Source: an uncultured Verrucomicrobiae bacterium
Lineage (GTDB): Bacteria; Verrucomicrobiota; Verrucomicrobiia; Chthoniobacterales; UBA10450
Reading direction: 5' to 3'
Length of the DNA stretch: 64,000 nucleotides
NCBI GenBank assembly: GCA_963709435.1
Contig: CAVPWK010000010.1
Coordinates: 111,399-175,398, forward strand
The position numbers and the translations under genes are program-made. The notes beneath the pieces are model-generated. The model saw nothing but the letters and a program-made list of their open reading frames with translations, did not search any database and was not told where the DNA came from. Below, piece after piece: positions 31,447 to 61,353 of this stretch (its first letter is position 1; every line of letters begins with the position of its first letter).

Positions 31447-31464
31447 AAGACCAAGGTCCAATAT
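31447..31464 (+). promoter_or_regulatory. GGACC-N2-GGTCC quasi-palindrome + TATA-like tail, copy 1
   Basis: aagaccaaggtccaatat, about 218 nt upstream of and co-oriented with the HAD-like gene (31682). Confidence 0.5.
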
Positions 31465-31681
31465 TGTACTGGTGCACGTTTCCGTAGTCTGAAGGTGATG
31501 CTCGTGACGCTCGCTTCCCGAGTTCTGTTGAGTGCCGACTGTCAGCGTGATAAACAGTTCACCATCGAGCAACCTATCGCGGAAGACTGCTACATGGCTG
31601 CTGAGATGGAAGGGGAGGCTGCGCTAGGTTGGTACGGCGGAATCGGCCTGAGACACATTTGGTAGTAGCCGATCAGACGAA

Positions 31682-32657
31682 ATGAGATGTATTCTCGTCG
31701 TTCTGCTGCTTGCGGCACCGGTTTACGCGCAGAACCCACTTCCTTCCTGGAACGATACCGCGCCGAAGAAAGCGATCGTCGCCTTCGTCGAGAAGGTGAC
31801 CAAGGAAGGCTCACCGGATTTCGTGCCCGTCCCCGAACGCATTGCCACTTTCGACAACGACGGGACACTCTGGTGCGAACAGCCAATTTATTTTCAATTC
31901 GTCTTCGCGATTGATCGAGTAAAGGCGCTCGCCCCCCAACATCCCGAATGGAAAAAGCAGCAGCCGTTCGCGGCTGTGCTGTCGGGTGACAAAGAAGCGC
32001 TACTCGCTTCAGGTCAAAAGGGCCTCATGCAGATCATGGCAGTGAGCCATAGCGGCATGAGCGACCGAGGAATTTGCCAGAATCGTCGGTCAATGGTTCG
32101 CGACTGTCCGGCATCCGCGTTTCAACCGCCCCTACATGGATTTGGTTTATCAACCGATGCTGGAACTTCTGGCCTATCTGCGCGCTAACGGTTTCAAGAC
32201 CTTTATCGTCTCGGGCGGGGGCGTCGAGTTCATGCGCGTCTTCACCGACAAGACCTACGGCATTCCGCCAGAGCAAATAGTGGGCTCCTCGGCCGTCACT
32301 AAATATCAGTTCACCCCAAACGGAAAGCCTGAGCTTCTGCGCGAGGCGAAGGTTCTATTCATTGATGATGGACCGGGCAAAGCGGAAGGGATCAACACCT
32401 TCATCGGTCGTCGTCCCATCATGGCTTTTGGCAACTCCGATGGTGACCAGCAGATGCTCGAATGGACAACGGCAGGGAACGGCGCGCGCTTCGCGTTGAT
32501 TGTTCATCACGACGACGCCGAGCGTGAATGGGCCTACGACCGCAAGAGTCACATCGGTCGGCTCGACAAGGCGTGGGATGAAGCGATCGCCAAAGGTTGG
32601 ACGGTCGTAAGCATGAAGGAAGATTGGAAGACGATTTTCCCGACAACGGCGCAGTAG
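31682..32657 (+). pseudogene. Secreted HAD-superfamily hydrolase, frameshifted
   Basis: Signal peptide plus a DxDxT motif (FDNDGTLW) in ORF 31682..32188. The rest (FIVSGGGVEF...GNSDGD) is in ORF 32136..32657. The shift lies near 32060. Confidence 0.7.
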
Positions 32658-32680
32658 CTAACGCGCACCGGCCCCCTCGC

Positions 32681-33433
32681 ATGTTCGATTTTGCAGGAAA
32701 AGTTGCCCTTGTTACCGGCGGCAGCAATGGCATTGGCCGCGCCACTGCGATTCTGTTTGCACGAAGCGGGGCAAAAGTTGTCATTGGCGACATCGATCCC
32801 GCTGGTCAGGAAACCGCTGAGCTAATTACGAGGGAGCGGGGTGAAGCTCTCTTTGTGCAGACCGACGTCCGAGAAACTAACGAGGTACAGCATCTTGTCG
32901 CAACTGCAATCGAGACATACGGAGGACTGCACTGTGCATTTAACAACGCCGGAGTTCTGCCTCCTACCGGTTTGCTCGCCGATACCGACGACGCGACCTT
33001 CGACCAGGTACTCGCCGTGGACCTCAAGGGAGTGTTCCTCTCGATGAAGTACGAGATCCAGCAGATGCTGAAAGGTGGCGGTGGCGCGATCGTCAACAAC
33101 GCTTCGATTGCCGGGATGATTGCTGATCCGGGCATCAGCGCCTATGTGGCGGCCAAGCATGGCGTCATTGGATTGTCGAAAGCTGCAGCCATTGAATATG
33201 CAAGTCAGGGGATTCGCATCAATGCCATCGCGCCGGGACTGGTTGAAACAGCGATGACGAAGCATTGGTTCGACGATCCGAATATTCGCAGGCATTTTTT
33301 GGCTAATTCGCCCATTGGCCGAGTCGCCCAACCAGAAGAGATGGCTGGCATGGTGCTCTTTCTCTGCTCCGACTTCGCCTCATTTGCTGCTGGACAAACT
33401 TTTGTAATCGACGGCGGCTACACCGCTCATTGA
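32681..33433 (+). CDS. SDR family oxidoreductase
   Basis: TGGSNGIG cofactor motif, NNAS, and YVAAK catalytic Tyr/Lys. The start is at MFDFAGKVALV. Confidence 0.9.
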   Translation: MFDFAGKVALVTGGSNGIGRATAILFARSGAKVVIGDIDPAGQETAELITRERGEALFVQTDVRETNEVQHLVATAIETYGGLHCAFNNAGVLPPTGLLADTDDATFDQVLAVDLKGVFLSMKYEIQQMLKGGGGAIVNNASIAGMIADPGISAYVAAKHGVIGLSKAAAIEYASQGIRINAIAPGLVETAMTKHWFDDPNIRRHFLANSPIGRVAQPEEMAGMVLFLCSDFASFAAGQTFVIDGGYTAH

Positions 33434-33516
33434 GCAGAGCGAAACTGCACATTCTATGCTGGAGATTCTTGGACGCCTGATCTGACATTTGTGTTCTGAC
33501 CTTCGTCCTACTGCCG

Positions 33517-33536
33517 ATAGGACCAAGGTCCGATAG
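33517..33536 (+). promoter_or_regulatory. GGACC-N2-GGTCC quasi-palindrome, copy 2
   Basis: ataggaccaaggtccgatag, about 32-42 nt upstream of the arylsulfatase start region. Confidence 0.5.
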
Positions 33537-33567
33537 TCTGGGCCTTCCATTTTCGAATGGTACGAGA

Positions 33568-34877
33568 ATGCACGATCATGAAAACGAAACTATCTTTGCA
33601 GCGGAACCTCGCGCTGTTGCGTCTTCACCGCTAGCGCACAATCTCCAGCCGCCATCGGCCGGAAAGAAACCCAACATCCTCGTCATCATGGGTGACGACA
33701 TCGGGTGGTTCAACCCGAGCTGCTACAACAGTGGCATCATGGGTTACCAAACGCCCAACATCGACCGCATCGCCAAAGAAGGCGCGCGGTTTACCGATTG
33801 GTATGGGCAGCAGAGCTGCACGGCGGGACGCGCGGCGTTCATCACCGGGCAATCGCCCATCCGCACTGGTCTGACGAAGGTCGGCCTGCCGGGCGCGGAC
33901 ATCGGCCTGCAAGCGAAGATCCGAGCGTCGCCGATTTCATGAAGAACCTCGGCTACGCGACCGGGCAGTTCGGTAAGAACCACCTGGGAGACCTGAACAA
34001 GTTCCTGCCCGACGGTCCACGGCTTCGACGAGTTCTTCGGCAATCTCTATCACCTCAACGCTGAGGAAGAGCCGGAGAATCCCGACTATCCGAAGGCACC
34101 CGAGTTCAGGAAGAAGTTCGGCCCGCGCGGGGTCATGCACTGCTGGGCCACCGACGCCGACGACGCCACCGTTGATCCGCAGTTCGGCAAAGTCGGCAAG
34201 CAGAAGATCGAGAACACCGGCCCGCTGACCGTCGAGCGAATGAAAACCATCGACGACGAGTTCACGGACGCCGCATGGCGTGGATGGACAAGCAGGCCAA
34301 GGCCAACAAGCCGTTCTTCTGCTACTACAACTCCACCCGCATGCACGTCTTTACGCACCTCAAGAAAGAGAGCGAAGGCAAGACGGGCCTGGGCCTTTAT
34401 CCCGACGGCATGGTCGAACACGACGGCCACGTCGGGCAGCTACTCAAGAAACTCGACGACCTCGGCATCGCGGACAACACCATCGTCGTCTACACCACCG
34501 ACAACGGCGCCGAAGTCATGACCTGGCCCGATGGCGGCACCACGCCGTTCAAGGCGAGAAGGCCACCAACTGGGAAGGCGCCTTCCGCGTGCCGACGCTC
34601 ATCCGCTGGCCCGGCGTGATCAAACCCGGCCAGGTGATCAACGACATCTGTGCCCACGAGGACTTGATCCCCACCTTCGCCGCCGCCGCGGGCGAGCCGG
34701 ACCTCGTCGCCAAGGTGACGAAGGGCTATCAAGCCAACGGCAAGACCTTCAAGGTTCACCTCGATGGCTACAACCTCATGCCGTTCCTCAAGGGCGATGT
34801 AAAGAATCGCCGCGCAAGGAGTTCATCTACTGGTCCGACGACGGCGACCTGATGGCCATCCGCTACGAGCAGTGGAA
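33568..34877 (+). pseudogene. Arylsulfatase, at least 5 frameshifts and 3'-truncated
   Basis: Sulfatase signature [12 protein letters not shown] plus [10 protein letters not shown]. The reading frame hops near 33912, 34010, 34272, 34552 and 34803 (track ORFs 33568, 33705, 34135, 34275, 34280, 34531). It ends abruptly after ...IRYEQWK. Confidence 0.8.
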
Positions 34878-35960
34878 ATCCGCTTGCCGGCGGTCAACGC
34901 CGAACTGATGTTCCAAGCGATGCATGACGCCAAAGCTGACTTCAACCAGGTCGTCTATCGGTCGCGGCCGGTTAGCTGGAAGAACCAGACGCTTACTCCT
35001 AATCCCGACACGATTTATCTCATGCCCTTCTACAACACCAAAGACGCGGGACCGATGGTGCTGGAGATTCCGCCGGCCGGCGAGGAAGAATCGATCACCG
35101 GCAGCGTTGACGAAGCCTGGCAGACAGCGATCGAAGATGTAGGACCGGCAGGAGTAGATAAGGGTAAAGGCGGTAAGTATCTCGATCCTGCCGCCAGGCT
35201 ACAAGTAGTCGGTGCCGGAAGGCTACATCGCCATGCCATCAGGGACCTATACTGGCTTACGCGTTGCTGCGCTCGAATCTTAAGAGCGCCAGCGAAGCCG
35301 AGGTCGCCAAAGCCGTGGCCTACGGCAAGCGCATCAAGTTCTACCCGCTTTCGCAAGCGGCCAATCCTCGGCCGACAAAGTTCGTCGATGCGATCGACAT
35401 CGTGTTCGACAGCACGATTCCATACGACTCGCGCTTCTTTCAAGACGCTCGACCGCGTGGTGCAAAGAGAGCCATGGATACGAAAGAGATAGAGTCATGA
35501 TCGATCAGCTCGAAACGATCGGCATCGAGAAAGGGCAAACCATTCAATCCATGATGCTAACACCCAGAAGATTCTAAGCGATGCCGCGCGCGAAGCGCAT
35601 GACTGGATGGATCTGAAGTATCAAAGACAACACTTCGCGACGCCTTATAACGAAGGCAAGCCACTGGGCGTTGCCAGCGGTGTCAGATGTTGCTCGAAGG
35701 TCTGCAGACGAATTTCGCCAAAGCGACACTTATCCGGTCGATGGCCGCGGCGTCGGATATTCTCTGGGTTACTTTAGCGCGAAGCATTTGGGCACAGGCC
35801 AATTCTACCTCATGACCATTGTGGACAAGGCCGGTCAGTCGTTCGATGGCGCTAAAACCTATCGCCTGAACGTGCCTGCGAACGCGCCAATCACGCTCTA
35901 TTGGTCGGCGACGGCTCATCCGCATGCGAAACCACCGCTCAGAAGGAAGTACATGCACTT
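34878..35960 (+). pseudogene. DUF1254/DUF1214 family gene remnant (5'-truncated, frameshifted)
   Basis: NPDTIYLMPFYNTKDAGPMVLEIP (DUF1254-like) and TYRLNVPANAPITLYWSAT (DUF1214-like) are spread over at least 3 frames. There is no N-terminus, and the remnant is fused to the sulfatase remnant. Boundaries are approximate. Confidence 0.55.
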
Positions 35961-35989
35961 GTTAGGCATTGCGCATGCCGCGATGATCT

Positions 35990-36991
35990 CACGCGCAATC
36001 ACCTTCGCCATCCGCGACAGGCGCCATTCCGGTCACGGTCGATAACTTCATCCGGGCCGAGTCGGATCTCTATTTCAGCGCGGTCGCTTGAAGGAACGGC
36101 TTCGGCAAGTTCGAGCACCATCGCGAACTGGCGCCGATCGACGCCCAGCGCGTTCATCGGCAAAACCGCGATACGCTTTATTCGGTCGGCGTCTTCGATC
36201 TCGATGCCGGCCCGGTAACGGTCACGCTACCCGACGCCGGCAAGCGCTTCATGTCGATGATGGTGATCGATGAGGATCAATACGCTTACACAGTTGTCTA
36301 TGGCAAGGGCAGCTACACTTTCGATAGAGGAAAGGTCGGCACGCGTTACGCGCTGTCGGCGATCCGCACCCTGGTCGATCCGAACGATCCAAAGGACCTC
36401 GAGCAAGCGCACGCGCTACAGGACGCGATCAAGGTCGAGCAGCCTGGTGGTCCGGGGAAATTCGAGGTGCCGAATTGGGATCAGGCGAGCCGGAAGAAAA
36501 TGCGCGAGGCGCTGACCGTGCTAGGCGATCGCCGTTGACTGACACGGTGCCTCCGGCCCCAAGGATCAGGTCGATCCGATCAGGCACTTGATCGGCACCG
36601 CGACGGGCTGGGGCGCAATCCGACAAGGACGCAATTTATCTGAACGTCACTCCGCCAAGAACGACGGGAAGACCACCTACAAGCTCAAGGTCAAAGACGT
36701 GCCCGTCGACGGCTTCTGGTCGATCAGCCTCTACAACGCCGAGGGCTACTCTCGTGAAGAACGACTCAGAACGCTTACTCGTTCAATAACATCACGGCAA
36801 AGAAAAACGACGATGGTTCGGTCACGATTCAGTTCGGCGGTGCGACCCGCCTTCGCTAGGCTCGGCGCGACGGCAAAACTACCTAACTGTCTGCCGATTA
36901 TGCCTGGCTGGAATTACACGGTGCGTCTCTATCGCCCGCGGAAAGAAATTCTCGATGGAACCTGGAAGTTTCCGAGGCGCAGCCGCAATGA
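35990..36991 (+). pseudogene. Second DUF1254/DUF1214 family gene, frameshifted
   Basis: VTVDNFIRAESDLYF, NRDTLYSVGVFDLDAGPVTVTLPDAGKRFMSMMVIDEDQY (ORF 36251..36538) and VPVDGFWSISLYNAEGY (ORF 36588..) lie in different frames. Boundaries are approximate. Confidence 0.55.
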
Positions 36992-37031
36992 ATGCTTCAC
37001 ACTCTGCCTAACGAAAACAGAAAATATTGTG

Positions 37032-37455
37032 ATGAAACTTCCTCCTGATATCCAGTTTCACGAAGACATTCGTCTGCTCGTCTATCGGCCGCGCGGTTCG
37101 TTGAACCGAGGCGTCGGTTAACAAAATCATTAGAGTCATTGGAGAACTCGAGGCCAAGTTAAAGGAACCTTTCAACCGGTTCTTCGATACGTTGGGGCAC
37201 GATGACGTGGAGCTGAACTTCAGATACGTCATTCACGTTTCTCTCTATCGCCGTCTTACCTACGTGAAGTGGCCGCCGATCAAGTCTGCGATTCTTGCGA
37301 CCGATTCCACCATCATTCATTACGCCAAGCTGCACGCCTTACTGACTCAAGGTTCGGCCATCAACGTCCGCATTTTCCAAGATCGACAGGAAGCGGCGCA
37401 ATGGCTCGGCGTGCCGATCGCACTGTTAATGCCGGATGCCGCCGAAACATCCTGA
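37032..37455 (+). pseudogene. Small conserved-looking hypothetical protein, one frameshift
   Basis: MKLPPDIQFHEDIRLLVYRPRGSLN (tail of ORF 36588..37121) continues as EASVNKIIRVIGELEAKLKEPFNRFFDTLGHDDVELNF... in the frame of ORF 37192..37455. The shift lies near 37106. Confidence 0.45.
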
Positions 37456-39136: not shown

Positions 39137-39184
39137 GCTGACGCGATCTGCGGGAGCAGCCGTCCATTACGATCGCTTGTCGAC

Positions 39185-39205
39185 ATTGGACCAAGTCCTG
39201 ACATT
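39185..39205 (+). promoter_or_regulatory. GGACC-N2-GGTCC quasi-palindrome, copy 3 (1-nt deletion)
   Basis: cattggaccaagtcctgacatt. Its tail supplies the stop codon that opens the RND fragment frame. Confidence 0.45.
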
Positions 39206-39207
39206 AG

Positions 39208-39513
39208 GCGCTGGAGGGCGCGCGACTACGTCTGCGTCCGATCCTGATGACTTCGTTCGCCTTCATTTTCGGCTTTCTGCCGCTCTGGTTCGCCAGTGGC
39301 TCCGGCGCCGTAGCGCGTCGCGTCCTCGGATCGACCGTCATCGGAGGAATGATCCGCCGTCTCAGCCATCGCCATCTTCCTCATCCCCCCAGCTTTTACG
39401 TGATCGAGCGACTCTTCGCCGGCCGGCAGTCCGCGGAAAAACCGGAAGAAAAGCCGCCCGCGACCAAACCGCCGACCCTTGGTCTCGTAAGCCTAACGGG
39501 GCTTGATAATTAG
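39208..39513 (+). pseudogene. RND efflux permease, C-terminal fragment only
   Basis: ALEGARLRLRPILMTSFAFIFGFLPLWFASGSGAVARRVLGSTVIGGM matches the last TM region of AcrB-type pumps. There is a further frameshift before PSFYVIERLF. The roughly 1000 upstream codons are absent. Confidence 0.7.
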
Positions 39514-39735: not shown

Positions 39736-39921
39736 TCATAGGTTATCGATGCGCATCAAGGCATCGGCGAGCGCTTCGGGACTGCTGACGTGCGGGCAAT
39801 GTCCGCCGGGTAGCTCAATCGGTTCTACTCCGAGTAACTCTAGAGCGGCTTTGTGTTGCCACTCTGTCGGCATCGGACCAACGTCCCATATACGGCTCCT
39901 GCCGAGGGACGAAACTGTCAA
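39736..39921 (-). pseudogene. Alpha/beta hydrolase, C-terminal fragment
   Basis: Only ~60 aa remain, with the catalytic-His region LPGGHCPHVSSPEALADAL. No N-terminal domain is present. Confidence 0.5.
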
Positions 39922-39923: not shown

Positions 39924-40313
39924 ATGAAGAGAATGATTTATCTCAGCAGTAGCCTGATTGTTATGGCACTCAGTGTCGCCATCTTTTCAGGATGTGGGAC
40001 GACTGGTAGCAGCTCGACCACCACCACCGCTACGACTGTGAATGCTAATTCCGGTAGTTTGGTCGTCAATCGAGCCGCAAATATGGGAAGCGCACTGTTC
40101 CTCCATGTATCGATTGATGGTAAAAGAGTTTCGACGCTTAGCCCCGGTCAACATTACAGCGGATCCTTGTCAGCGGGTCCGCACGTCGTGTCCGTGATTC
40201 TGGAACCGAACGGGCTGAATCTCCCCCCCACTAAAAAGAAGATCACGGTTCAGTCGGGCCAGACCTACACATTCACCGCGTCGTGGCAGGGAGAGACCCT
40301 GCTTTTGCTCTGA
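39924..40313 (+). CDS. Hypothetical lipoprotein (DUF2846-like?)
   Basis: Lipobox AIFSGCG, a Thr/Ser-rich linker and a single beta-rich domain (GPHVVSVILEP). Confidence 0.6.
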   Translation: MKRMIYLSSSLIVMALSVAIFSGCGTTGSSSTTTTATTVNANSGSLVVNRAANMGSALFLHVSIDGKRVSTLSPGQHYSGSLSAGPHVVSVILEPNGLNLPPTKKKITVQSGQTYTFTASWQGETLLLL

Positions 40314-41851: not shown

Positions 41852-42013
41852 CTAACGAGAACTCTCCTGTCCCGCCGGGAATACCGTGCCGTAACCAGGT
41901 CCAGCAATTTCTTCACGGTCATCGGACAGTCCATTCAACGGGGTCATCCAGATTTCCCCTGGGCCGATGCGCAACGCGTTAGCTCATCTCGGGCGCTGAC
42001 TGCCGCCGGCAAC

Positions 42014-42033
42014 ATTGGACCAAGGTCCAATAT
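42014..42033 (+). promoter_or_regulatory. GGACC-N2-GGTCC quasi-palindrome, copy 4 (best copy)
   Basis: attggaccaaggtccaatat has 8-nt arms that are perfectly complementary. It lies 38 nt upstream of ATG 42071. Confidence 0.55.
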
Positions 42034-42618: not shown

Positions 42619-42646
42619 CATCGGACCAAAGTCTTACGTCCAATAT
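42619..42646 (+). promoter_or_regulatory. GGACC-N2-GGTCC quasi-palindrome, copy 5 (internal insertion)
   Basis: catcggaccaaagtcttacgtccaatat, 62 nt upstream of ATG 42708. Confidence 0.45.
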
Positions 42647-42707
42647 CGCGAGTGGGCGATAGCGTTGAGGAGTTGGATTGCGATTAATCCAAAACCTCTT
42701 TTACACC

Positions 42708-44920
42708 ATGAACCCAAAATTCCTCTTTCGATCGGCCGTGATTTTGTGCGCGGCCTTCTCCCTAACGACCGTCTCGTCATCGGCCGCACCGAACCCCGAT
42801 CGCGACGTTTTTTCGGCCAGACGCACGTGCATACGAGCTGGTCGCTGGACGCCTACGTCATCGGCAACACGGTGACCGGGCCGGAAGAGTGCTATCAATA
42901 TGCGCTCGGTAAACCGATCAAACATCCCGCCGGCTATGAGGTGAAGATCACGCGGCCGCTCGACTTTCAGGGCGTGACCGATCACTCCGAGTACGCGGGC
43001 ATGATGAGATTGGCGAACGACCCCAGTTCCCCCATTAGCAAGCTGCCGATCGCAGAGAAACTCAAGGTTCGCAGCCAGGCTGACTCGATGAAAGTCTTCC
43101 AATTCTTGATCGGGAGCCTTGCCCGGAACGAGCCGATCAAGGAATTGGATGATCCGGAAGTGGCCGGCACGGTTTGGAAAAATAATGTCGCCATTGCGGA
43201 TAAGTATTACCAGCCGGGCAAGTTTACGACGTTCGCGGCCTACGAATGGACCTCGGCGCCGCAGAGCCGGAACATGCACCGCAACGTCTTCTTCCGGGAT
43301 ACAAAGCATGTGCCCGCAGCGCCGTTTACGGCGATTGATTCGTATCATCCCGAGGATCTCTGGGCCTGGATGGATGGGCAGCGCAAAGCAGGTAATGAGG
43401 TGCTGTGCATTTCGCACAATGCGAACCTGAGCGACGGCATCATGTTCCCGACCGAGGTGGATAACAAGGGCCGTCCGATTGACGCCGCCTGGGCGCAAGA
43501 GCGGTTGGATAATGAACCGCTTACCGAAATCCATCAACTCAAGGGCACGTCGGAGACCCACCCGTTACTTTCGCCTAACGACGAGTTTGCGAATTACGAG
43601 ATCATGAGCTTTCTCATCGGCGTTGCCAACAGCACCTCCAAACTCAATGGCAGCTATGCCCGTGAGGCTTACCAGAATGGGCTGGCGATGCAGGACACGC
43701 GCGGCTACAACCCATATAAGTTCGGCATTGTCGCCGCGAGCGATTCGCATAACACGGCCGCCGCTTATTCCCAATCCAATTACTTTGGCGGCCACTCCTT
43801 TTTGGACGCCACGCCCAAAGCCCGACTCTCGGGCACGGTGGAGGCGGGCATGGATATCTTGAAGCTGAGCACCTCCGGTCTGGCTGGTGTCTGGGCGGAA
43901 GAAAATACGCGCGAGTCGATTTTCGACGCGATGAAGCGGAAGGAAACGTTCGGCACCAGCGGCGTTCACATCAAAGTGCGCATGTTCGGGGGATGGAACA
44001 TGGATTCTGCCATGATGAAGGACAAGGATTGGGTGAAGAAAGCCTACGCCTCAGGCGTTCCGATGGGCGGAGATCTGCCGGCTAACGAAGGTGGCAAGGC
44101 TCCGTCGTTCGCGGTATGGGCGGTGAAAGACCCAGATGATGGTAACCTTGACCGCATTCAGATTATCAAAGGTTGGACACAAAGCGGACAGAATTTCGAG
44201 AAGGTTTACGACGTGGCTTGGTCCGGTCAGCGCAAGCCTGATCCGGCCACCGGCAAAGTGCCCGCGGTCGGCAGCACAGTGGATGTTACGAAAGCTACTT
44301 ACACAAACTCCATCGGGGCCGCGGAATTAAAGGCGGTTTGGACGGATCCGGAGTTCGATCCGAGCCAGCACGCCTTCTACTACACTCGTGTTTTGCAGAT
44401 TCCGACTCCGCGTTGGAGCACCTACGACGCAGTTAAGCTTCACGTCCCGCCACCGGCGGGAGTCGATGCTAGCGTGCAGGAACGCGCGTGGACTTCGCCG
44501 ATTTGGTTCACACCCACGGCCGAGGCGGCGAAGGGAGCAAAACACGGTACGACTGTGGCAGACCTCAAAGATAAAGGTGCCACTGCTCTTGGTGATACGG
44601 AGTTGAAAGCACTCGTGGTAGGCAAGACACTCAAAGTACGCAACGCCGTTACCGGTCAGCAATTTGAGATCACCTATGGGACCGACGGCCAGCGCATAAT
44701 AAACAGCGTGGACGGAAAGCCGCCGTCCGGGGGAGAGATGTTCAGCGTGATGCACGGTGGCCAAGCCCAGCAATACCAAATCAAGGACGGCCACATTGTT
44801 ACTACCATAGGAGGCACGCCGTTTGAAGTTGCTGTTTATAAAGTCGGCGACAAGTACCTGGCGGCGCGCAGCAATGAATTCGGCTTCGCCAATTACGAGA
44901 TCGAAGCAGGCACCGAGTAG
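42708..44920 (+). CDS. DUF3604 domain protein (PHP-like metallo-hydrolase fold), signal peptide out of frame with the body
   Basis: FGQTHVHTSWSLDAY...SDSHN is DUF3604-like (track ORF 42665..44920). The signal peptide MNPKFLFRSAVILCAAFSLTTVSS is in track ORF 42678..42875. The two frames meet in a T6 run at 42808-42813. Confidence 0.75.
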
Positions 44921-48504: not shown

Positions 48505-48720
48505 TCAATCAGGAAGCGGCGACGACACGGTGTAAACTCCATTCGCGCCGTAGGCCGGGGCGAACCCGTTATTGCCACGCAAATAATAAGTCGTGCCCTG
48601 AACAGTGGGGGTGATGCAACCGGCTGGCAGATCTGTCACTATCTGTCCGATAGAATAATTAGCCGTTGTCACAACTGCCTTGGTGGTCGTGGCGGGTTGA
48701 TTTGTCGTGGCTGTCGCACC
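48505..48720 (-). pseudogene. Remnant of a minus-strand gene (C-terminal ~70 codons)
   Basis: The tail ...YSIGQIVTDLPAGCITPTVQGTTYYLRGNNGFAPAYGANGVYTVSSP looks coding. The 5' part of track ORF 48505..48816 is just the antisense of the promoter/signal-peptide module of the next gene. Confidence 0.3.
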
Positions 48721-48726
48721 GGCTGG

Positions 48727-48747
48727 ATTAGACCAAAGTCCTATACT
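48727..48747 (+). promoter_or_regulatory. GGACC-N2-GGTCC quasi-palindrome, copy 8
   Basis: attagaccaaagtcctatact, 60 nt upstream of ATG 48807. Confidence 0.5.
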
Positions 48748-48806
48748 CGTTGTCGGGATCAGTCCGTAGCGTTGGAGTTTAGATTCCCAATAAATCCCTC
48801 TACACG

Positions 48807-49892: not shown

Positions 49893-50639
49893 TTAGGGCG
49901 TCGGGACCGCGATGCTCGGAGCTTGCGTTGCTGGCAGAATGACAATGGCCAGGCGGCCATCGGTTCGCCACGGATCGCCGCCTCCGTTTCGACCCTCTAA
50001 TTGAGTGTGAAATTTATCGAGCCAGTCGACCTGCGCTGCAGTCGCTTTGGTTAAATCGGCAACGAGCAAATTCCTCTCGGCGTCAACATCCGGTGAAATG
50101 TGATGCGTCACCTGGCCGGTGGTACGACTGAGCTCGACCCTGATGTCGTAGGCCGCCGAACCAATCCAGGCCGGACGATCATCGTACGTCTTGGCCATTT
50201 GCCAGAAGCGCACGTGATGGCGCTCCTTCGGACTGTTCCCGACGGGCTTTTCAAATGCCAGATCTTCTTTCCTTCCGAAAAGATAAAGATTACTGACGGG
50301 AGCCTGGTCATCCGGTTTTCGCAAAACCGTATCCACGACGATTCGAACGCTGCTCCGGAAAGTCAGAGCATCGGCGGGATCCCACTTCGCGGCGATCATC
50401 GCGTGGATGACTTCCTCTTTTGTTCCGACGAGGGCGATATTGAGCGGATCGCCGGGAATCCCGCTGGCCGTGTGCGTCACCCGCGGGCTGTCATCGAAAA
50501 CGGCATGTCGCATTTCGTGATGCTTCCAGAGCCGTGGAAGAATCACGTACGCGACCAGGAAATAGGCTAAGGCCGCGCCGAGCGCGATTCGCGCCCAGTT
50601 CGGGAACGCCCTCTGCTTTTCTGGATTGGCTTCAGGCAC
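49893..50639 (-). CDS. LssY-like C-terminal domain protein, membrane anchored
   Basis: N-terminal TM helix, PLNIALVGTKEEVIHAMIAAKWDPAD and RHHVRFW resemble the LssY_C family. GTG start. Confidence 0.65.
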   Translation of the reverse strand: MPEANPEKQRAFPNWARIALGAALAYFLVAYVILPRLWKHHEMRHAVFDDSPRVTHTASGIPGDPLNIALVGTKEEVIHAMIAAKWDPADALTFRSSVRIVVDTVLRKPDDQAPVSNLYLFGRKEDLAFEKPVGNSPKERHHVRFWQMAKTYDDRPAWIGSAAYDIRVELSRTTGQVTHHISPDVDAERNLLVADLTKATAAQVDWLDKFHTQLEGRNGGGDPWRTDGRLAIVILPATQAPSIAVPTP

Positions 50640-50671: not shown

Positions 50672-50692
50672 GATTGGTACGACTTTGGTCTC
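50672..50692 (-). promoter_or_regulatory. Quasi-palindrome, copy 9 (minus strand)
   Basis: The minus-strand reading is gagaccaaagtcgtaccaatc, about 33 nt upstream of the minus-strand start at 50639. Confidence 0.45.
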
Positions 50693-50872
50693 ACCGGGAC
50701 GCCTTCCGGCCAATGGGGCCTTCAATTCTCCGGGTCGGGAGCTTTGGTTTAGAGCGCAAAGTGTGAGTCAGACTAGCCGGTCGATTAAATTGGGATTGAT
50801 TGCTGTAGGCGGGACTTCGTCTGTCAAGCGCAGACGCAAGCCGACCGGATTGAGGCAAGCGCGCTCACGCGG

Positions 50873-50892
50873 CTACGACCAAAGGCTTATTG
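50873..50892 (+). promoter_or_regulatory. Quasi-palindrome, copy 10 (weaker)
   Basis: ctacgaccaaaggcttattg, 92 nt upstream of ATG 50984. It faces away from copy 9 in the same divergent spacer. Confidence 0.4.
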
Positions 50893-50983: not shown

Positions 50984-51433
50984 ATGAAAACCAACTTCGT
51001 CAATTTCACCTTCGCGAGTCTCACATTCCTCCTGATTGCCGGATGCGCATCAGAGACCAAAGCCCCGAGTACGCCACCCTCGGCCACTGTCACCATTCAC
51101 GAGTGGTCGGCTGCCTATTACGCTCAGGCTGAAGCCGGAAAGGGCACTCTGTATTACAACGGTGGGCTGCATCGTTTCACCATCTCTGGTGGGGGCCTTG
51201 GCGGCTCGGGCGCTCAAAAGGTCAATGCCACCGGCAAGGTCTATAATCTAAACAGGCTCTCCGATTTCTCCGGAACTTACCATGGCGTCAGTAACGGACT
51301 CACACTGATCGAGGGGCACATGCATGCGAAGCTGACGAATCAGAATGGCGTGGTCATGTATATCGCCGGCCAGACTGAAGGCCTGGCTTCCTCCCTTGGA
51401 GCGCAAGCATTTTCGGTTCAGTTAACCCATTGA
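50984..51433 (+). CDS. Hypothetical lipoprotein (possibly DUF1134-like)
   Basis: Lipobox LLIAGCA. The Gly-rich beta pattern GGGLGGSGAQKVNATGKVYNLNRLSDFSGTY supports only a tentative family assignment. Confidence 0.6.
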   Translation: MKTNFVNFTFASLTFLLIAGCASETKAPSTPPSATVTIHEWSAAYYAQAEAGKGTLYYNGGLHRFTISGGGLGGSGAQKVNATGKVYNLNRLSDFSGTYHGVSNGLTLIEGHMHAKLTNQNGVVMYIAGQTEGLASSLGAQAFSVQLTH

Positions 51434-51475: not shown

Positions 51476-51493
51476 CAGTGCCTTAGTCTGGCC
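51476..51493 (+). promoter_or_regulatory. Quasi-palindrome, copy 11 (weak)
   Basis: cagtgccttagtctggcc shares the CCTTAGTC core with the copies at 55427 and 57746. It lies 60 nt upstream of ATG 51553. Confidence 0.3.
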
Positions 51494-52386: not shown

Positions 52387-52419
52387 GAGCACCTGATTCA
52401 TGTAGGGAATTCTTACGCT

Positions 52420-53105
52420 GAGCGCCAAGGGCGCTCTGTTATGTCAGCCTGGGGCAGCGCTCCAGGAATCCGATTATCCCCAAGATAACCAAGCGCTGAA
52501 AGCGCGTCTCAATCCAGCGTGGCTTCTCAATCCCAGACATATCGCTCGTCGAAATCAACGCCGTGCCTGCGAAGCAACTCGCGGTATTCCTCCTGAAAGA
52601 TGCGAGTGCGATGGTGTTCTTGTTGCGTGTCAACGTATTCCAGTACGGCCTCGAGCTGACTCGGGCTCACCGAAAACGCGCCATACCCACGCTGCCAGAA
52701 AAAGCTGCGATAGCGAGCATCAAGTGTTTTGATCCATTTCGAGGATACCTTCTTTATCTGCTCGATCAATTGAGCTTGGGAAACGGTTCGCGGCAGCGTC
52801 GTGACAATGTGAACATGATCAGCGACGCCGCCAACGCGCACCACTTCGGTACCGAGGTCGCGGCAGACTGTCGCCAAGTAAGCATGCATCCGTGGCCGTA
52901 CGTCTAAACCAAGCCAAGGCTCGCGATCTTTCGTGCTAAAGATGATGTGAACGATGACCTTACTTAGCGATTGAGGCATAGCATCAATAATGGAATGGAA
53001 TGACTCGGAAGTGAATCGCGCTTTCAGCGCTGGCGCTTTTCTTTGGGTCCCATGAATCCTGGGGCGCTGCCCCAGGCTCGCGTTGAATTGCGCGCCTTTG
53101 GCGCT
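52420..53105. mobile_element. REPtron: RAYT gene flanked by mirrored triple hairpin repeats
   Basis: Left flank hairpins are A 52420-52436 (gagcgccaagggcgctc), B 52448-52466 (cctggggcagcgctccagg) and C 52492-52506 (agcgctgaaagcgcg). The right flank carries their reverse complements in mirrored order: C' 53017-53031, B' 53058-53076, A' 53092-53105. Confidence 0.75.
52527..52979 (-). CDS. REP-associated tyrosine transposase (IS200/IS605-like Y1 transposase)
   Basis: HUH motif (ADHVHIVTT) and a catalytic-Tyr region (LEYVDTQQEHH). About 150 aa from the internal Met MPQSLSKVIVHIIFSTKDR. The upstream part of the track ORF is repeat DNA. Confidence 0.85.
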   Translation of the reverse strand: MPQSLSKVIVHIIFSTKDREPWLGLDVRPRMHAYLATVCRDLGTEVVRVGGVADHVHIVTTLPRTVSQAQLIEQIKKVSSKWIKTLDARYRSFFWQRGYGAFSVSPSQLEAVLEYVDTQQEHHRTRIFQEEYRELLRRHGVDFDERYVWD

Positions 53106-53188
53106 AAGCACGTACAAGAGACCCTCTGCTGATTTGTCAGCAACGTGCGTGTTGACATTCCCCGCACGCGCCTGATCTATTCACTGCT

Positions 53189-55426: not shown

Positions 55427-55447
55427 CATAAGACCTTAGTCCTATGG
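55427..55447 (+). promoter_or_regulatory. Quasi-palindrome, copy 12 (GACC-TTAG-TCC variant)
   Basis: cataagaccttagtcctatgg, 79 nt upstream of ATG 55526. Confidence 0.45.
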
Positions 55448-55525: not shown

Positions 55526-56158
55526 ATGGTTCAACTGCTGCTCGCTCTCGCGCTGCTCCTCTTCTGCGCGCCTTTTGTCGAAGAAATCAAAGGCGGAGAT
55601 TTCATTGTCTCGCTCCTGCTTTCTCTGGTGTTGATCTCCGCCGTCCTTGCCGTCGCCGGTCGTCGCAGCACGCTAATTATCGCGCTCTTGCTGGCGATCC
55701 CAGCGCTCGTGGGCCGGTGGATAAATTATTTCCGGCCGGAGTTGGTTCCCCCTGCCGTATTTCTTACCGCAGGACTCGCCTTGATTGCTTTCGCAGTGGC
55801 GAATTTGCTCCGCTTCGTTTTGCGTGCCCCTTCGGTAAACACCGACGTACTTTGCGCAAGCATTTCAGCTTATCTGATGCTCGGTTTGTTGTGGACGTTA
55901 GCTTACTGGCTCGTGGATCAGTTGAATCAGGAAGCCTTCACCTTCAACACGACCAACGGAACGAAAGAGACGATGGCAGGTTTCAACGCCTTCTACTTCA
56001 GCTTCATCACGCTGAGCACGGTCGGCTATGGCGATATCATCCCGGTTTCGAAAGTCGCCCGTATGCTTGCGGCAACAGAAGCCATGACCGGGGTGCTCTA
56101 TGTCGCGGTCCTGATTGCGCGGTTGGTCGGCCTTTATTCAGCTCCAAAATCTCAATGA
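55526..56158 (+). CDS. Potassium channel family protein (two-TM pore type with extra N-terminal helices)
   Basis: The selectivity filter TVGYGD lies in FITLSTVGYGDIIP. Confidence 0.85.
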   Translation: MVQLLLALALLLFCAPFVEEIKGGDFIVSLLLSLVLISAVLAVAGRRSTLIIALLLAIPALVGRWINYFRPELVPPAVFLTAGLALIAFAVANLLRFVLRAPSVNTDVLCASISAYLMLGLLWTLAYWLVDQLNQEAFTFNTTNGTKETMAGFNAFYFSFITLSTVGYGDIIPVSKVARMLAATEAMTGVLYVAVLIARLVGLYSAPKSQ

Positions 56159-56230: not shown

Positions 56231-57650
56231 CTACCGCAGATCGGGGGCCTTCGGTGCGACCCTTGGCTTGGGTTGAATTACCAGGCCGCCCGGGCCCAGC
56301 GGGAATTCCATGCGAAACAGCGCGCCGAACATGGCGATGGAGTTATCGCTCCACAATCCTCCATGCCCCCAAATAATGTCCTTGGGCACGCGCACGATCC
56401 AATAGGGCACGCGGGCGTTGCCGCTATACTCAAATTTCCATTTCCGCCAGACTTCTTTTCCAGTCGGTGGATGGACATCACCGGGAGTGTATTCGCCATT
56501 GTGACAAAAGCTGTTTCTCATGGCCGTCGTTATGCTCGCTCGTATAAAATGAAAAATCGGGATGGTTTTGCTTGATATTGGCTTCGAAAGCCCTGTTCTC
56601 AGTCGCGCGCAGACCTGACGGCGGGCTGGTTTCTCCGAGCGAAACGACATGGTAATTGATGAGGTAATGATTGTTGCCCGGCGTATGGGTATAAAATTCG
56701 TTTTCCGAAACCTTTTCGCCGTGGTGACCGGGCACCGGCACCTTTTGCCAATGAAAATGAAGGGCGGCCACATCGATGACTCCTTGGCCGATGGGAAAGA
56801 TCTGTCCGGTGGCCGAATCATTCTCAGATTGGAGAAGGACCAGGGCCGGGCGGTTTTCGCTAACGGCGGCTGTGTCTTCGCCCAGGTTACCACGGCTGAC
56901 GTAGGCGCGCTTCTGCGGGTCGTACTTATATAGATAGTCGAACTCCGACATCAGCTGCCGGGTGGTGATGGAACTATCGGCTGAGTTAAAGGCCACAGCC
57001 ATGTCCCAGGCGCTGGAGCTGCGGCCGCCTTCGCCATTGGCGCCGAGGATCGAGTGAGAGATCGTGTTCCCAAGCACCAAAGCGCCGAATGAATGTCCGA
57101 GTAGAACGGTGTGATGGTAGTCTTTGCCGGGTTCACGGGCTGCGACGGCGAGTTCTTCGATGCTTGCCAGGCAACTGTTCGCCCCGGCGATCCCTCCGCC
57201 AGCGGACTTGCGGCTCCAGAACGTCAGGAAATTCAGTCCTGGCACGGTAAGATCTTTTCCACGCCAGCCGATGTAAACGCCAATGACATTGATCTTTCGT
57301 CCCGTGAATTCGGGAAAACTGGAAACCATGTCGAGAAAATGCTCGAACCGGCAGACGTCGGCTGAAGTGGCATTGTTTTGCCAGCCATGAATGTAAACGA
57401 AAAGCAGAGGACGTTTTGCTTCATGGATGGCCTCAAGAGCCGCTTTTCGTTGTGAATTATCCAGAGGCGATCCCTGATCGCCAAACTCGATGAAGGCTAA
57501 TTTGTAGCGCCCATCGGCAGGCCCGCGGACCGAGTTGTTAGGATTAGCGGCGGTGTTGGCGTGATACGGCCCATAAGATGCGCACGAAACCAACAGCATC
57601 GCCAAAGCAAGTCTGGCGATGCTCGAAGATCGCGCGCTAAGGTTTCGCAT
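56231..57650 (-). pseudogene. Alpha/beta hydrolase lipoprotein, C-terminal part in another frame
   Basis: Lipobox MLLVSCAS from the internal Met MRNLSAR and the nucleophile elbow GHSFG are in ORF 56478..57878. The coding-looking tail (GNARVPYWIVRVPKDIIWGHGGLWSDNS) is in ORF 56231..56893. The shift lies somewhere in 56480-56600. Confidence 0.6.
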
Positions 57651-57745: not shown

Positions 57746-57768
57746 AACTGGACCTTAGTCTTATATAC
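57746..57768 (+). promoter_or_regulatory. Quasi-palindrome, copy 13
   Basis: aactggaccttagtcttatatac sits in the divergent spacer, 156 nt upstream of ATG 57924. Confidence 0.45.
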
Positions 57769-58118: not shown

Positions 58119-58260
58119 CGGTGGAGACCCAGCCAACACGCTGCTCATCTAAAGCGATTTATTAGCTAACAAGGAGTGGAAGCGAGGCGGTTTTCTAAAT
58201 TTTCCTGATCATTAGCAGTGCGATTTGAACCGATCGCGTTTCGTCACGGCGGGATATGTT

Positions 58261-58281
58261 CTACGACTAAGGTCCCATATT
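58261..58281 (+). promoter_or_regulatory. Quasi-palindrome, copy 14
   Basis: ctacgactaaggtcccatatt, 146 nt upstream of ATG 58427. Confidence 0.45.
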
Positions 58282-58426
58282 CAGGCCTCCGGTTACTCGC
58301 AGACATTATCGCTCTTCCATTATTCACCGTTCGGGTACTCGCGTGGACTTGGAAGGACAACAACATTCAATCCGGGTCCATGAGACCACTTCGCAAACAA
58401 CCTCAACCAAACAAGCAATAAACAAC

Positions 58427-58858
58427 ATGAAACAGATACGAATCTTACTCAAGACCAGCACCGCCATAGCGCTGCTGGCACTCATGGTTGGTTGCGCCTC
58501 GACGCAGACCGCCGTGGAAAACAAAGAGAGCATGCTGGTCGCCGCTGGCTTCAAAACAATCACGCCTAAGAATGCTACGCAGCAGCAAAAGCTCCAACAG
58601 CTTCCGCCGGGCAAGATAGCGATGATCCAGAAAAATGGGAAAACGCTCTACGTATTTCCAGATGCCGCCCACAACCAGGCTTACGTCGGCGGCCCGCACC
58701 AGTATCAGGCTTACCAACAGGCGCGCCTCGCTAACCATCTCGCGCAGGAGAATCTCGAAAGCGCTGAGATGTACCAGGACGCAAGCATGAACTGGGGCGC
58801 CTGGGGTGGTTGGGGAGTGGGCTGGGGAGGAATGGGAGGCGGAAGGTGGTGGTATTAA
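58427..58858 (+). CDS. Lipoprotein with Gly/Trp-rich C-terminal tail
   Basis: Lipobox ALMVGCAS. The tail is NWGAWGGWGVGWGGMGGGRWWY. Confidence 0.6.
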   Translation: MKQIRILLKTSTAIALLALMVGCASTQTAVENKESMLVAAGFKTITPKNATQQQKLQQLPPGKIAMIQKNGKTLYVFPDAAHNQAYVGGPHQYQAYQQARLANHLAQENLESAEMYQDASMNWGAWGGWGVGWGGMGGGRWWY

Positions 58859-58992
58859 GCCGGCTTGCGAACCTAAAACAATTAAGCCGACCTAATAAGT
58901 TACCAAGGCAACGGCTGCGATAACAAGTCTACGGATTTTCCTCAGAAGCTTCCCATCACTTCGAAAGCACCGTCTCGAAGCTAGGGAGTGCC

Positions 58993-59014
58993 CTTAGGAC
59001 TAAGGTCCAATAAG
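58993..59014 (+). promoter_or_regulatory. Quasi-palindrome, copy 15
   Basis: cttaggactaaggtccaataag, 142 nt upstream of GTG 59156. Confidence 0.5.
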
Positions 59015-59088
59015 GCGCAATTCTTAGCACGTCGATACTCGCTGCGGATTCCCCCGGACGCCGGGCGAATCGCGCCGCGCGGTAACAC

Positions 59089-59102
59089 TATATATATATA
59101 GT
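59089..59102. repeat. (TA)n palindrome ctatatatatatag
   Basis: Read directly from the sequence and followed by tatatgtatagagag. It shares TATAGAGAG with 5717-5726. Confidence 0.8.
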
Positions 59103-59155
59103 ATATGTATAGAGAGATGGCGAGAGATTCGACGATATGACGTCTCAATCTGAGA

Positions 59156-61242
59156 GTGATCTTCCGCTCGAGGTTGGGCATGTGCTTGTTCATTGACATT
59201 GTCGGTTATTCCAAACTGTTGATCGACGAGCAGAAGGAACGGTTAAGACAACTCACCGATCTCGTGCTGGCGACCCCCCAGGTCCGTGAGGCGCAGAATG
59301 AGGATCTTGTCCGGCTGCCGACGGGCGATGGCATGGCGCTGGTTTTTTGGAACAGTTTGGAAGAACCGGCCCAGTGTGCGCTGGAGATGGCGCGAGCACT
59401 AAAGCCATATCCGCAGATTCAGGTCCGAATGGGAATCCATAGCGGCCCCGTGAGCAAAATCACCGACCTGAACGGCCACACCAATATCGCCGGAGCAGGC
59501 ATCAACCTGGCCCAGCGGGTGATGGATTGTGGCGATGCGGGTCACATCCTTCTCTCACGGCATGTGGTGGACGATCTCGCACAATATCGCCACTGGTCGG
59601 CGAACCTTCACGATCTGGGTGAGTGCGAAGTAAAACACGGGCTCAAATTGTCGCTGACGAATTTGTTCGGAGATGATTTTGGAAACCCAACCGTGCCGGC
59701 AAAGCTTGCCAGTGCGACCGCGCGACGTAAGGCGACCAGGCGATTGCAGATTGGAATAACCAGCGCTGCCGTTCTCGCTCTCGCCGCGGCGATATTTTTC
59801 TTTCGCTCAAGGGCCACGCATTCTTCCGCACCAATCCCGCCAAAATCCATTGCCGTGCTCCCTTTCGACAATCTCAGTCACGATCCCGAGAACGCCTATT
59901 TCAGCGACGGCATTCAGGACGAAATTCTGACCCGGCTGGCCAAGATCGCGGAGCTGAAAGTAATCTCACGCACCTCCACCGAACGGTTCAAGAGCGCGCC
60001 CGGCGATCTGCGTGAGATCGCCCAAAAACTTGGCGTGGCAAATATCCTGGAAGGCAGCGTGCAAAAGCCCAGCGACCAGGTGCGAGTCAATGTGCAGTTG
60101 ATCCATGCCGCCAGCGACACGCACATATGGGCCGAAACGTACGATCGGAAATTGACCGATGTCTTTGCGGTGGAAAGCGACATTGCGAAGAGCGTTACCG
60201 AAAAGCTCCAAGCTAAACTGACTGATTCGGCCGAACATGTGCTGGCATCGCGGCCTACGGAAAATCCGGAAGCCCATCAGCTCTATTTGAAAGGGCGTTA
60301 CTTCTGGAATAAACGCACCACTGACAATCTGAAAACGGCGATCGACTTCTTTGAGCAGGCGATCGCGAAAGATCCAGCCTACGCAGTCGCCTATTCCGGA
60401 TTGGCGGACGCTCATGCGGTCTTGCCCTACTATGCCGCTACTTCTCCAAAAGATGACGCTGGAAAAGCTCTGGCCGCAGCCGGCAAGGCGGTGAAGCTCG
60501 ATGACAGTCTCGCCGAAGCACACACATCTCTGGCCAATGCCCTCGTTTTAAATCTCCAGTTCTCCGATGCAATTCCGGAATTTCAACGAGCGATTGAACT
60601 CAACCCTAACTATGCCACGGCGCATCACTGGTACGGAGAATTGCTTCAAAATGAGGGACGCATTGACGAAGCGCTGGCTGAACTCCGGCGCGCGCACGAA
60701 CTTGATCCGCTATCGCTGGTGATTAATTCGGTGCTCGGTTCGACGTTGATCGTCGCGGGGCAGGACGATGCGGCAATCGATCAATTGCAAAAAACAATCG
60801 CGATGGATCCGAACTTCGATCTGGCTCACTGGTTTTTGGGCCAGGCCTACGAAGACAAGGGCCGAGCTGGCCGAAGCGATCCAGGAATATGAGAAGGCCA
60901 TGCAGCTGAATTCCGATCCCACTGTCCTGGCTTCGCTCGCCCGGGCGCATGCGCTGGCCGGGGACAAGGAAATTGCCGCGCAAGATGCTCGCCGACCTAA
61001 CGAATCAATCGAAGCAACATTACGTTCCGGCGTATCCGCTTGCGGTGGTCCACCTGGCCCTGGGGAATAAGGATGAGGCGCTGCGATTGCTGGAGAAAAG
61101 CTACGACGATCTCGCGCCTTTCGACACCGGCGTCTTCGGCAGTATCAAGATCGACCGAAGACTCGACGGGTTGCGCGGCGACCCGCGTTTCGACGCACTG
61201 GCCCGGAAGGTGATGAGCGGGTCCGTCGCTGAAACGCGCTGA
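59156..61242 (+). pseudogene. Adenylate/guanylate cyclase domain - TM - TolB-like - TPR protein, two frameshifts near the 3' end
   Basis: Class III cyclase-like N-terminus (LFIDIVGYSKL...GIHSGPV) and TPR repeats. The frames join at ...AYEDKG / ELAEAIQEYEKAM (near 60860) and ...GDKEIA / RKMLADLTNQSKQHYVPAY (near 60978). Confidence 0.75.
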
Positions 61243-61330
61243 ATCCGGTCGCAGCCTCATCGCTGTTAGGGCTTGTCCACCTTCGCGCCCAAGTCTGGCC
61301 GTAGGATCCAGGACCTGTAGGACCTAGGGC

Positions 61331-61353
61331 GTAGGCCAATGGTCCAATAGAAT
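61331..61353 (+). promoter_or_regulatory. Quasi-palindrome, copy 16
   Basis: gtaggccaatggtccaatagaat, about 31 nt upstream of the TTG 61384 ORF start. Confidence 0.45.

Follow-up and report, generated by a model that had tools for sequence, protein, structure and literature searches.

Genes and repeated palindromes in the window

The DNA analysed here, in the following called the window, is a 64,000-nt stretch of bacterial chromosome (55.8% G+C) from an uncultured Verrucomicrobiae bacterium (contig CAVPWK010000010.1, positions 111,399 to 175,398); homologues of its RarA, 85–88% identical, are labelled as Verrucomicrobia metagenome-assembled genomes. The left half consists mostly of housekeeping genes on the minus strand, and from 31.4 kb on 33 of the 37 called genes are on the plus strand, encoding sulfatases, a rhodanese, a DUF3604-PPIase-HupE operon, DUF1254/DUF1214, PLD and outer-membrane proteins together with YkuD, LssY_C, an ion channel, a TPR-cyclase and small signal-peptide proteins. 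Upstream of genes in this part a palindrome of about 20 bp, hereafter the box, is repeated (Table 1). An original prediction, made from the letters of the window, had listed 16 copies, each pointing the same way as the next gene, and proposed an operator or promoter element shared by genes mostly for exported or envelope proteins. A shared cis-regulatory element, placed in register before such co-oriented genes, is borne out here, and the repeated palindrome is real and statistically robust.

The core RGACYWWRGTCY has nine matches in the window, where shuffles give an expectation of 0.08, and the looser pattern GACYWWRGTC is present in 12 copies, all within 31.4–59 kb. Using a symmetrised position weight matrix (PWM), 17 sites of at least 10 bits were found against 1.2 expected per 64 kb. 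All of them are confined to 31.4–61.4 kb and all 17 are intergenic (P ~1e-10, given 26% non-coding DNA in that half), which agrees, as far as the window goes, with the suggested enrichment upstream of genes rather than inside them. The region 1–31.4 kb holds no site of 10 bits or more and the PWM scan of the window found no copy in the convergent spacers; both absences had been noted originally, and the matches at 8584 and 23501, then described as half-site-like only, score below 8 bits.

Fifteen of the 16 copies listed originally were recovered with the PWM, three of them weak (39184, 50872 and 61330; 10–14 bits), and the remaining one, at 51476–51493, is unsupported with a score below 8 bits. 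That list had also overlooked a good copy at 39871–39890, and the internal insertion it ascribed to the copy at 42619 is a misreading: the site is 42619–42638 and its spacing to the -10 box is the same as in other copies. When the 12 GACYWWRGTC copies were aligned a full 18–20-bp palindrome appeared, ATWRGACY-WW-RGTCYNAT, with a weak extra AT on one side. Because the aligned copies show this full palindrome, what had been taken for a TATA-like tail is mainly its outer arm, together with the start of a weak -35 element.

The box in other genomes

Public genomes, one per species, were scanned with the pattern ATWRGACCAARGTCCNATA, giving more than 119 loci and 125 unique instances among the matches listed, to which all counts of foreign loci and instances below refer (single loci are given L numbers). 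The raw number of matches is not comparable with the ~140 expected by chance, and non-random free positions were used instead. The free positions of the pattern are biased (T3 100/125, G4 106/125 and A16 102/125), and most listed matches are therefore true sites of one conserved 20-bp palindrome; the base before the pattern is T in 66 of 125. The full consensus, T-ATTGGACC-AA-GGTCCAAT-A, is that of both the 12 window copies and the 125 foreign instances, and the two arms degenerate independently. A cCGGC block, which had been reported beside about half of the copies, turned out to be merely a C-rich flank of at most 0.15 bit per position in the foreign instances, and a MAFFT alignment of 190-bp flanks revealed no conservation past the ~20-bp box.

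The loci listed are rich in Desulfobacterota, Binatia, Methylomirabilota, Rokubacteria, Acidobacteriota, Paraburkholderia/Caballeronia, Verrucomicrobiota, Gemmataceae and Gemmatimonadota. The box is conserved across phyla, and the local regulon first proposed has to be widened, as the same box, geometry and target families are found in Desulfobacterota, Acidobacteriota, Burkholderiales, Methylomirabilota, Binatia, Verrucomicrobiota and others. Sulfatase, PLD and DUF3604/PPIase/HupE genes as well as the lipoprotein family of 50984–51433 follow a box in distant genomes too, the last in six foreign loci. DUF3300, DUF2950, DUF2092, Lnb_N and Ysc84-like proteins recur in foreign box loci, where for DUF3300 and DUF2950 the recurrence is one of nearness to the box. 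In another genome, L137, where the DUF3604 protein is 73% identical, seven boxes are found in 22 kb, each 32–182 nt before a plus-strand gene. A receiver-only gene precedes the first of them, and among the targets are DUF3604/PPIase/HupE, DUF1254/DUF1214, DUF2092, DUF2490 and a DUF3302-RND efflux operon. Conservation at orthologues, suggested as a check in the original prediction, holds in part for DUF3604, with a box in L001, L002, L137 and L138 and none in L139 and L140.

A scan of viral contigs gave 12 single matches, five of them one repeated phage sequence. The related contigs L006, L009, L013, L014 and L015 share an identical 60-nt stretch with ATTAGACCAAGGTCCCATA in an A+T-rich context, which is probably unrelated to the bacterial box. 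A full-text literature search with 12-mers and N-containing forms of the consensus returned only the HcpR and Thermus NsrR boxes and no description of this one, and the names of the co-occurring DUFs led to no relevant paper either; no description having been found, the box, its regulator and its target set are seemingly undescribed in the searchable literature.

A repeated palindrome might also act as a DNA or RNA hairpin, either as a repetitive extragenic palindromic (REP)-like element tied to the transposase at 52527–53117, as a terminator, or as a recombination site bounding mobile gene cassettes. The window does contain this Y1 transposase, the best copy can fold (-7.2 kcal/mol), the gene content between boxes varies among close relatives and promoters with 5' modules are common to different genes. 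However, the folding of most copies (-0.9 to -5 kcal/mol) does not exceed that of shuffled sequence, the two arms vary independently and without compensation, no T-run follows any copy, no terminator-like site overlaps any box and the convergent spacers are without copies. Nothing past ~20 bp is conserved, so attC-like core sites are lacking, the repeats flanking the transposase have no box, and sequence conservation across phyla is unlike that of genome-specific REPs. We regard a hairpin function as extremely improbable, and the original argument against a terminator or REP role stands, given the weak folding, the missing T-runs and the position of copies upstream of genes only.

More specific candidates were rejected as well. 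REP/RAYT systems are hairpin-forming, genome-specific repeats, usually situated after genes and flanking a Y1 transposase, and were discarded on the weak folding, the strictly upstream copies, the cross-phylum conservation and the different repeats at the transposase. Integron attC sites are imperfect palindromes of 57–141 bp with RYYYAAC/GTTRRRY core sites and an integrase nearby; they, or any longer repeat unit, do not fit the alignment of 190-bp flanks, and no integrase was found among the open reading frames (ORFs) scanned in the window, which did not include every ORF in 1–20 kb. A promoter for a T7-like single-subunit RNA polymerase, considered for copies ending in TATA, was dropped, the 903-aa ORF at 14861–17572 being an Lhr helicase and the window ordinary chromosome. 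No Rfam family matches the window.

Promoter geometry

When analysing the 125 foreign instances, a -10 box of the form TAnnnT was identified 17 nt after a weak -35 element, T18-A19-K20-M21-C22, the hexamer of which starts with the last two bases of the palindrome. The -10 box occupies motif positions 41–46 (T41 85/125, A42 88/125 and T46 72/125), purines are enriched at positions 54–55, the -35 element is consistently poor, and the mean promoter score is +4.5 on this side versus -4.0 on the mirror side. The same spacing is kept in window copies, with TAGTCT (31485), TAGCGT (after 42619 and 48726), CAGCAT, CAGATT and GATACT as -10 boxes, and most of them have the higher promoter score on the gene side. 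A non-canonical promoter, as had been suggested, is not supported; the box, a probable activator site, is joined to a promoter of the σ70 type, in which 17 nt separate the weak -35 from the TAnnnT -10 box. A consensus promoter scan revealed no strong -35/-10 pairs at the boxes, as activator-dependent promoters are expected to show none.

It is this fixed, one-sided promoter geometry that accounts for the co-orientation of copies with genes, the direction being given by the -10 box on one side and not readable from the palindrome itself. Most copies face plus-strand genes and the copy at 50676 faces a minus-strand gene, in line with the claim that every copy points the same way as the next gene; the copy at 57746 is ambiguous. 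From the fixed -10 spacing the centre of the palindrome is predicted to lie near -43.5 (+/-1).

In five units of the window (33516, 39871, 42013, 50676 on the minus strand and 61330) the start codon is located no more than 2 nt from the predicted transcription start, and the same distance holds for the start codons of three units of L137. This suggests leaderless mRNAs for several box units and lends independent support to the predicted start.

Table 1. Boxes and adjoining two-component genes of the window, with scores of the PWM and of the downstream promoter
Feature	Position	Strand	PWM (bits)	Downstream gene	Remarks
Receiver gene, truncated at 5' end	28222–28452	+			Homology to L143 begins at 28375
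FixL-like GAF-PAS-GAF-PAS histidine kinase	28449–31056	+			Pfam; best NCBIfam match FixL
Receiver-only response regulator, 129 aa	31053–31442	+			Pfam Response_reg
Box GATAAGACCAAGGTCCAATA	31444–31463	+	26.2		Begins 2 nt past stop codon of receiver gene; -10 TAGTCT at 31485–31490; promoter score 4.8 on + side, -1.6 on mirror side
Box	33516–33535	+	24.6	Sulfatase fragment at 33568	ATG at -2 from predicted start; mRNA looks leaderless
Degenerate box, centre one base short (GGACC-A-AGTCC)	39184–39203	+	10.2	AcrB C-terminal stub	Poor -10 box
Box CATCGGACCAACGTCCCATA	39871–39890	+	18.1	ORF 39924–40313	ATG at -1 from predicted start
Best copy CATTGGACCAAGGTCCAATA	42013–42032	+	26.5	Rhodanese gene	Conserved in relatives L001 and L143
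Box	42619–42638	+	21.3	DUF3604-PPIase-HupE operon	-10 TAGCGT at canonical spacing; promoter score 4.7, mirror side -6.2
Box	47058–47077	+	26.5	ORF 47125–47511	ATG 13 nt past predicted start
Weaker box AATACGACTTAGGTCTCTAG	47577–47596	+	14.6	Adjoins ORF 47606–47995	No good -10 box; promoter score -6.1
Box	48726–48745	+	25.9	L,D-transpeptidase (YkuD) gene	-10 TAGCGT
Box	50676–50695	-	15.9	Faces LssY_C gene 49893–50639 (-)	Weak -10 box; GTG at +2 from predicted start
Weak box	50872–50891	+	12.8	Lipoprotein gene 50984–51433	
Box	55427–55446	+	26.7	Ion-channel gene 55526–56158	Promoter score 3.0, mirror side -2.0
Box	57746–57765	ambiguous	20.8	Spacer between gene 56478–57650 (-) and gene 58343 (+)	Promoter score 4.4 on + side, up to 2.6 on - side
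Box	58260–58279	+	20.0	ORF 58343–58858	Promoter score 3.3, mirror side -9.0
Box	58993–59012	+	23.9	TPR/cyclase gene 59156–60892	-10 GATACT
Weak box	61330–61349	+	13.7	Split sulfatase gene	Overlapped by second weak match 61316–61335 (13.6 bits); TTG at predicted start

The region 48716–48876, comprising the promoter and the 5' coding module of the YkuD gene, is 94% identical to L001 7416–7576. The counterpart in L001 heads a DUF3604 paralogue instead of YkuD, and in L001 the genes for rhodanese and DUF3604 are set apart by an additional 7.8 kb of genes headed by boxes. Inside the window, 42702–42777 and 48801–48876, which are promoter and 5' coding (signal-peptide) segments of different genes, show 79% identity.

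Regulator genes linked to the box

The first box is directly preceded by the genes of the FixL-like kinase and the receiver-only regulator. The kinase gene changes frame near 29830 and is read in two ORFs that overlap (in the relative L143 it is split at the same place); JGI gives its orthologues, with 87–98% identity, the label "LuxR family, sensor kinase FixL". It had been stated that no regulator able to read the element is visible in the window, which is true for a helix-turn-helix (HTH) partner but leaves out these two genes (28449–31442), which belong to the same signalling module; in the wider sense of no DNA-binding regulator at all the statement fails, as an unrelated Rrf2 regulator is encoded at 25256–25849.

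In close relatives a LuxR-type regulator gene is found just upstream of the counterpart of the window kinase. In these relatives the kinase is 88–98% identical. The gene order in L142 is kinase, response regulator (RR)-GerE, box, receiver, kinase, receiver, and in L143 it is MASE1 kinase, RR-GerE, box, rhodanese, box, receiver, box, receiver-kinase-receiver. The RR-GerE protein of L142 is 52% identical to a deltaproteobacterial regulator and has the same recognition helix, EKTIKVHR. The relatives also harbour an intact counterpart of the truncated receiver gene at 28222, preceded by a box and with the RR-GerE gene further upstream; the receiver region 28193–28452 corresponds to L143 6959–7354 and L142 9553–9969. 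Homology between L143 (95.5% identical) and the window starts only at 28375, inside the receiver gene, and what lies upstream in the relatives, namely the MASE1 kinase, the RR-GerE gene and three boxes, is absent from the window. The window therefore has no regulator gene in the usual position, and in this strain that gene may have been lost or moved.

The box is linked to such regulators in foreign genomes as well. When the ORFs of the 119 loci listed were clustered, response regulators and kinases formed the largest family, present in 43 loci. A FixJ/StyR-like response regulator with a LuxR-type HTH is encoded no more than 8 kb from the box in 26 of the 119, in at least 14 of those 26 the box lies 25–240 nt after the regulator gene and in the same direction, and in 10 foreign loci the gene that directly follows the box is one for a receiver-only regulator. 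Among solved structures, the regulator of L055, a representative of this family, is closest to StyR (1yio, E 4.7e-57) and FixJ (5xso, E 1.6e-41). The best NCBIfam matches are FixJ for the regulator (218.7, below the cut-off of 255) and FixL for the kinase (210.7, below the cut-off of 850).

The Rrf2 protein (25256–25849) could in principle bring in another reading, in which the box is the operator of this or another repressor encoded elsewhere and covers the -35 element. The Rrf2 gene lies beside sulfonate- or nitrate-type transport genes and some of the targets are sulfatases and a rhodanese, and palindromic operators overlapping a -35 are able to repress. Against it, there is no box near the Rrf2 gene or elsewhere in 1–31.4 kb, a consistently poor -35 is typical of activator-dependent promoters, and no Rrf2-type family is seen among the recurrent clusters of the foreign loci listed, where no search was aimed at Rrf2. 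A repressor operator is accordingly very unlikely, and Rrf2 as the reader of the box was rejected, having no sites near its gene.

Proposed function of the box

The box is probably where a two-component response regulator of the FixJ/StyR type docks, and is situated inside σ70-type promoters with its centre at about -43.5, as far as sequence data allow this to be judged. Each copy would be bound by a dimeric regulator of the FixJ/StyR subfamily (NarL/LuxR-type HTH), which on phosphorylation by the PAS/GAF FixL-like kinase would switch on many separate promoters. From a centre near -43.5, which is a class-II-type activator position, the bound regulator would recruit RNA polymerase, and several of the activated promoters would yield mRNAs that are leaderless or have a very short leader. 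The targets would mostly be secreted and envelope proteins, namely sulfatases, DUF3604-PPIase-HupE, the rhodanese, YkuD, LssY_C, the ion channel and small lipoproteins, and the receiver-only regulator genes would be further targets, probably giving feedback. The identity of the binding protein, activation rather than repression, and the exact transcription start are the parts that we infer.

Several points weigh against this proposal. No gene for a LuxR-type HTH protein was found in the window, so that the regulator would have to be encoded elsewhere or be lost in this strain, and a regulator gene within 8 kb occurs in just 22% of the foreign loci listed. The copies at 47577, 50676, 50872 and 58993 are without a convincing -10 box, and the predicted centre at -43.5 itself depends on a predicted -10 box. 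A site that overlaps the -35 element could serve repression. Finally, only 2 of 18 positions separate the box from the one predicted for HcpR, ATTTGACCNNGGTCAAAT, and CRP/FNR proteins also work from about this place.

This last point leads to the main rival explanation, in which a CRP/FNR-family protein, related to HcpR or Dnr but of changed specificity, acts on the box as a class II activator. Agreement at 16 of 18 positions with the HcpR box predicted for Desulfuromonas and Desulfotalea (PMC545781), a 5-4-5 palindromic reading TGGAC-N4-GTCCA and a position near -42 all suit this family, and genes of global regulators need not adjoin their targets. However, the T that defines the HcpR half-site TTTGAC is present in none of the 12 strong window copies, and the pattern used for the foreign search excluded this diagnostic T, yet returned a coherent family. 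Searches by tblastn with E. coli CRP and FNR, of limited sensitivity, gave a hit in one of the 119 loci listed and none in the window; a FixJ-like regulator is found in a fixed arrangement in 26 foreign loci versus one locus for a CRP/FNR-like protein. The predicted centre is also ~2 bp further upstream than the classical CRP/FNR position of -41.5, and targets of the hcp or frdX type are lacking. We consider a CRP/FNR activator quite improbable and a FixJ/StyR-type regulator the better candidate.

A further reading goes beyond the FixJ/StyR-type docking site and sees the box as the mark of a horizontally spreading kit, composed of the FixJ-like two-component system and self-contained units of box, promoter and (leaderless) secreted-protein gene. 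Such units would behave as modules that strains and phyla gain, lose, duplicate and exchange, recombination making use of the conserved promoter and 5' coding segments, and the window would be one flexible island in which the regulator gene was maybe lost from its usual place and part of the regulon is decaying. At present we think this unlikely.

If docking of a FixJ/StyR-type regulator is correct, one uncharacterised FixJ-like two-component system governs secreted and envelope proteins in large number and over a wide phylogenetic range, mostly from families whose function is unknown (DUF3604, DUF1254/DUF1214, DUF2092, LssY_C and small lipoproteins). The interest lies in this conservation across phyla and in the linking of many such families to one signalling system. 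The box offers a sequence handle by which the regulon can be predicted in any genome and the families tied to a common physiological signal, and for phyla that have received little study, such as Verrucomicrobiota, it gives access to promoters that are activator-dependent and often leaderless. The box may also aid annotation, as in several units the true start codon would be that at the predicted transcription start.

Other features of the window

Many genes are split or truncated (28449–31056, 33568–34852, 34872–37121, 39247–39513 and 61384–63169): two sulfatases are in two and three pieces, DUF1254/DUF1214 is in four pieces and AcrB is reduced to a C-terminal stub. The splits are either real decay or indel errors of long reads.

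In 20906–25849 the Rrf2 gene (25256–25849, minus strand) adjoins a gene for a phosphate-selective-type porin and an NMT1-type ABC transporter operon, which may form a separate sulfur- or iron-related unit without a box. Between the Rrf2 and sulfotransferase genes, at 26038–26829, there are three direct repeats of ~210 bp (76–79% identical), the stretch having only short ORFs. The Y1 transposase (52527–53117, minus strand) is IS200-like and flanked by a ~90-bp inverted repeat (52417–52506 and 53017–53109), which is free of boxes.

Comparison with known systems

The HcpR type-2 box, predicted for a CRP/FNR protein in delta-proteobacteria, has the consensus ATTTGACCNNGGTCAAAT (PMC545781). The likeness extends to 16 of 18 positions and many of the foreign box matches come from Desulfobacterota. 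It differs at position 4 and its mirror, which here are G/A (C in three copies) and never T, and the box described here is neither linked to CRP/FNR genes nor placed before hcp or frdX targets.

The Dev box of DosR/DevR in Mycobacterium tuberculosis, TTSGGGACTWWAGTCCCSAA, is a 20-bp palindrome of which a NarL-family dimer reads G4G5G6A7C8T9 in each half (PMC3177182). It has G5-G6-A7-C8 and the W10-W11 centre in the same register as the box, several window copies carry GACT..AGTC, and DevR, too, activates many promoters of one stress regulon. The two differ in that position 4 here is T/A instead of G, position 3 is T/A (C in one copy) instead of S, and the outer positions are ATT instead of TTS-G. 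DevR promoters need two tandem boxes as a minimum (PMC3177182), whereas nearly all promoters here have a single one. The box-linked regulator matches DevR (3c3w) with E 4.6e-13, which is far weaker than the matches to StyR and FixJ, and the content of the regulon is unrelated.

FixL/FixJ of rhizobia and Caulobacter provide the best NCBIfam matches of the kinase and regulator and, for the kinase, the JGI label. In FixLJ-FixT, with FixT as feedback inhibitor, a small receiver-like protein feeds back on the kinase, to which the box-driven receiver-only genes would be analogous. Both proteins here are below the FixL and FixJ equivalog cut-offs, however, the sensors have GAF/PAS or MASE1 domains with no haem-PAS sensor shown, fixK or nif targets are lacking, and receiver-only genes are direct targets of the box.

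In StyS/StyR of Pseudomonas (and likewise TodS/TodT) the response regulator is of the FixJ subfamily, and of all solved structures that of StyR is nearest to the box-linked regulator. With the box, the STY2 and Tod boxes (ATAAACC-AT-GGTTTAT) have the central ACC-WW-GGT in common. StyR-P binds as a dimer to inverted-repeat sites, shown as inverted arrows in the promoter figure, and activates PstyA from the high-affinity site STY2 at about -40 (PMC2442086). The box differs in its length of 18–20 bp and in having GG at the outer half-site positions where StyR sites have AA, and whereas StyR serves a single catabolic operon, with three sites and IHF, here many promoters have one box each. Their targets are secreted or envelope proteins of unknown function, and receiver-only regulators form part of the module.

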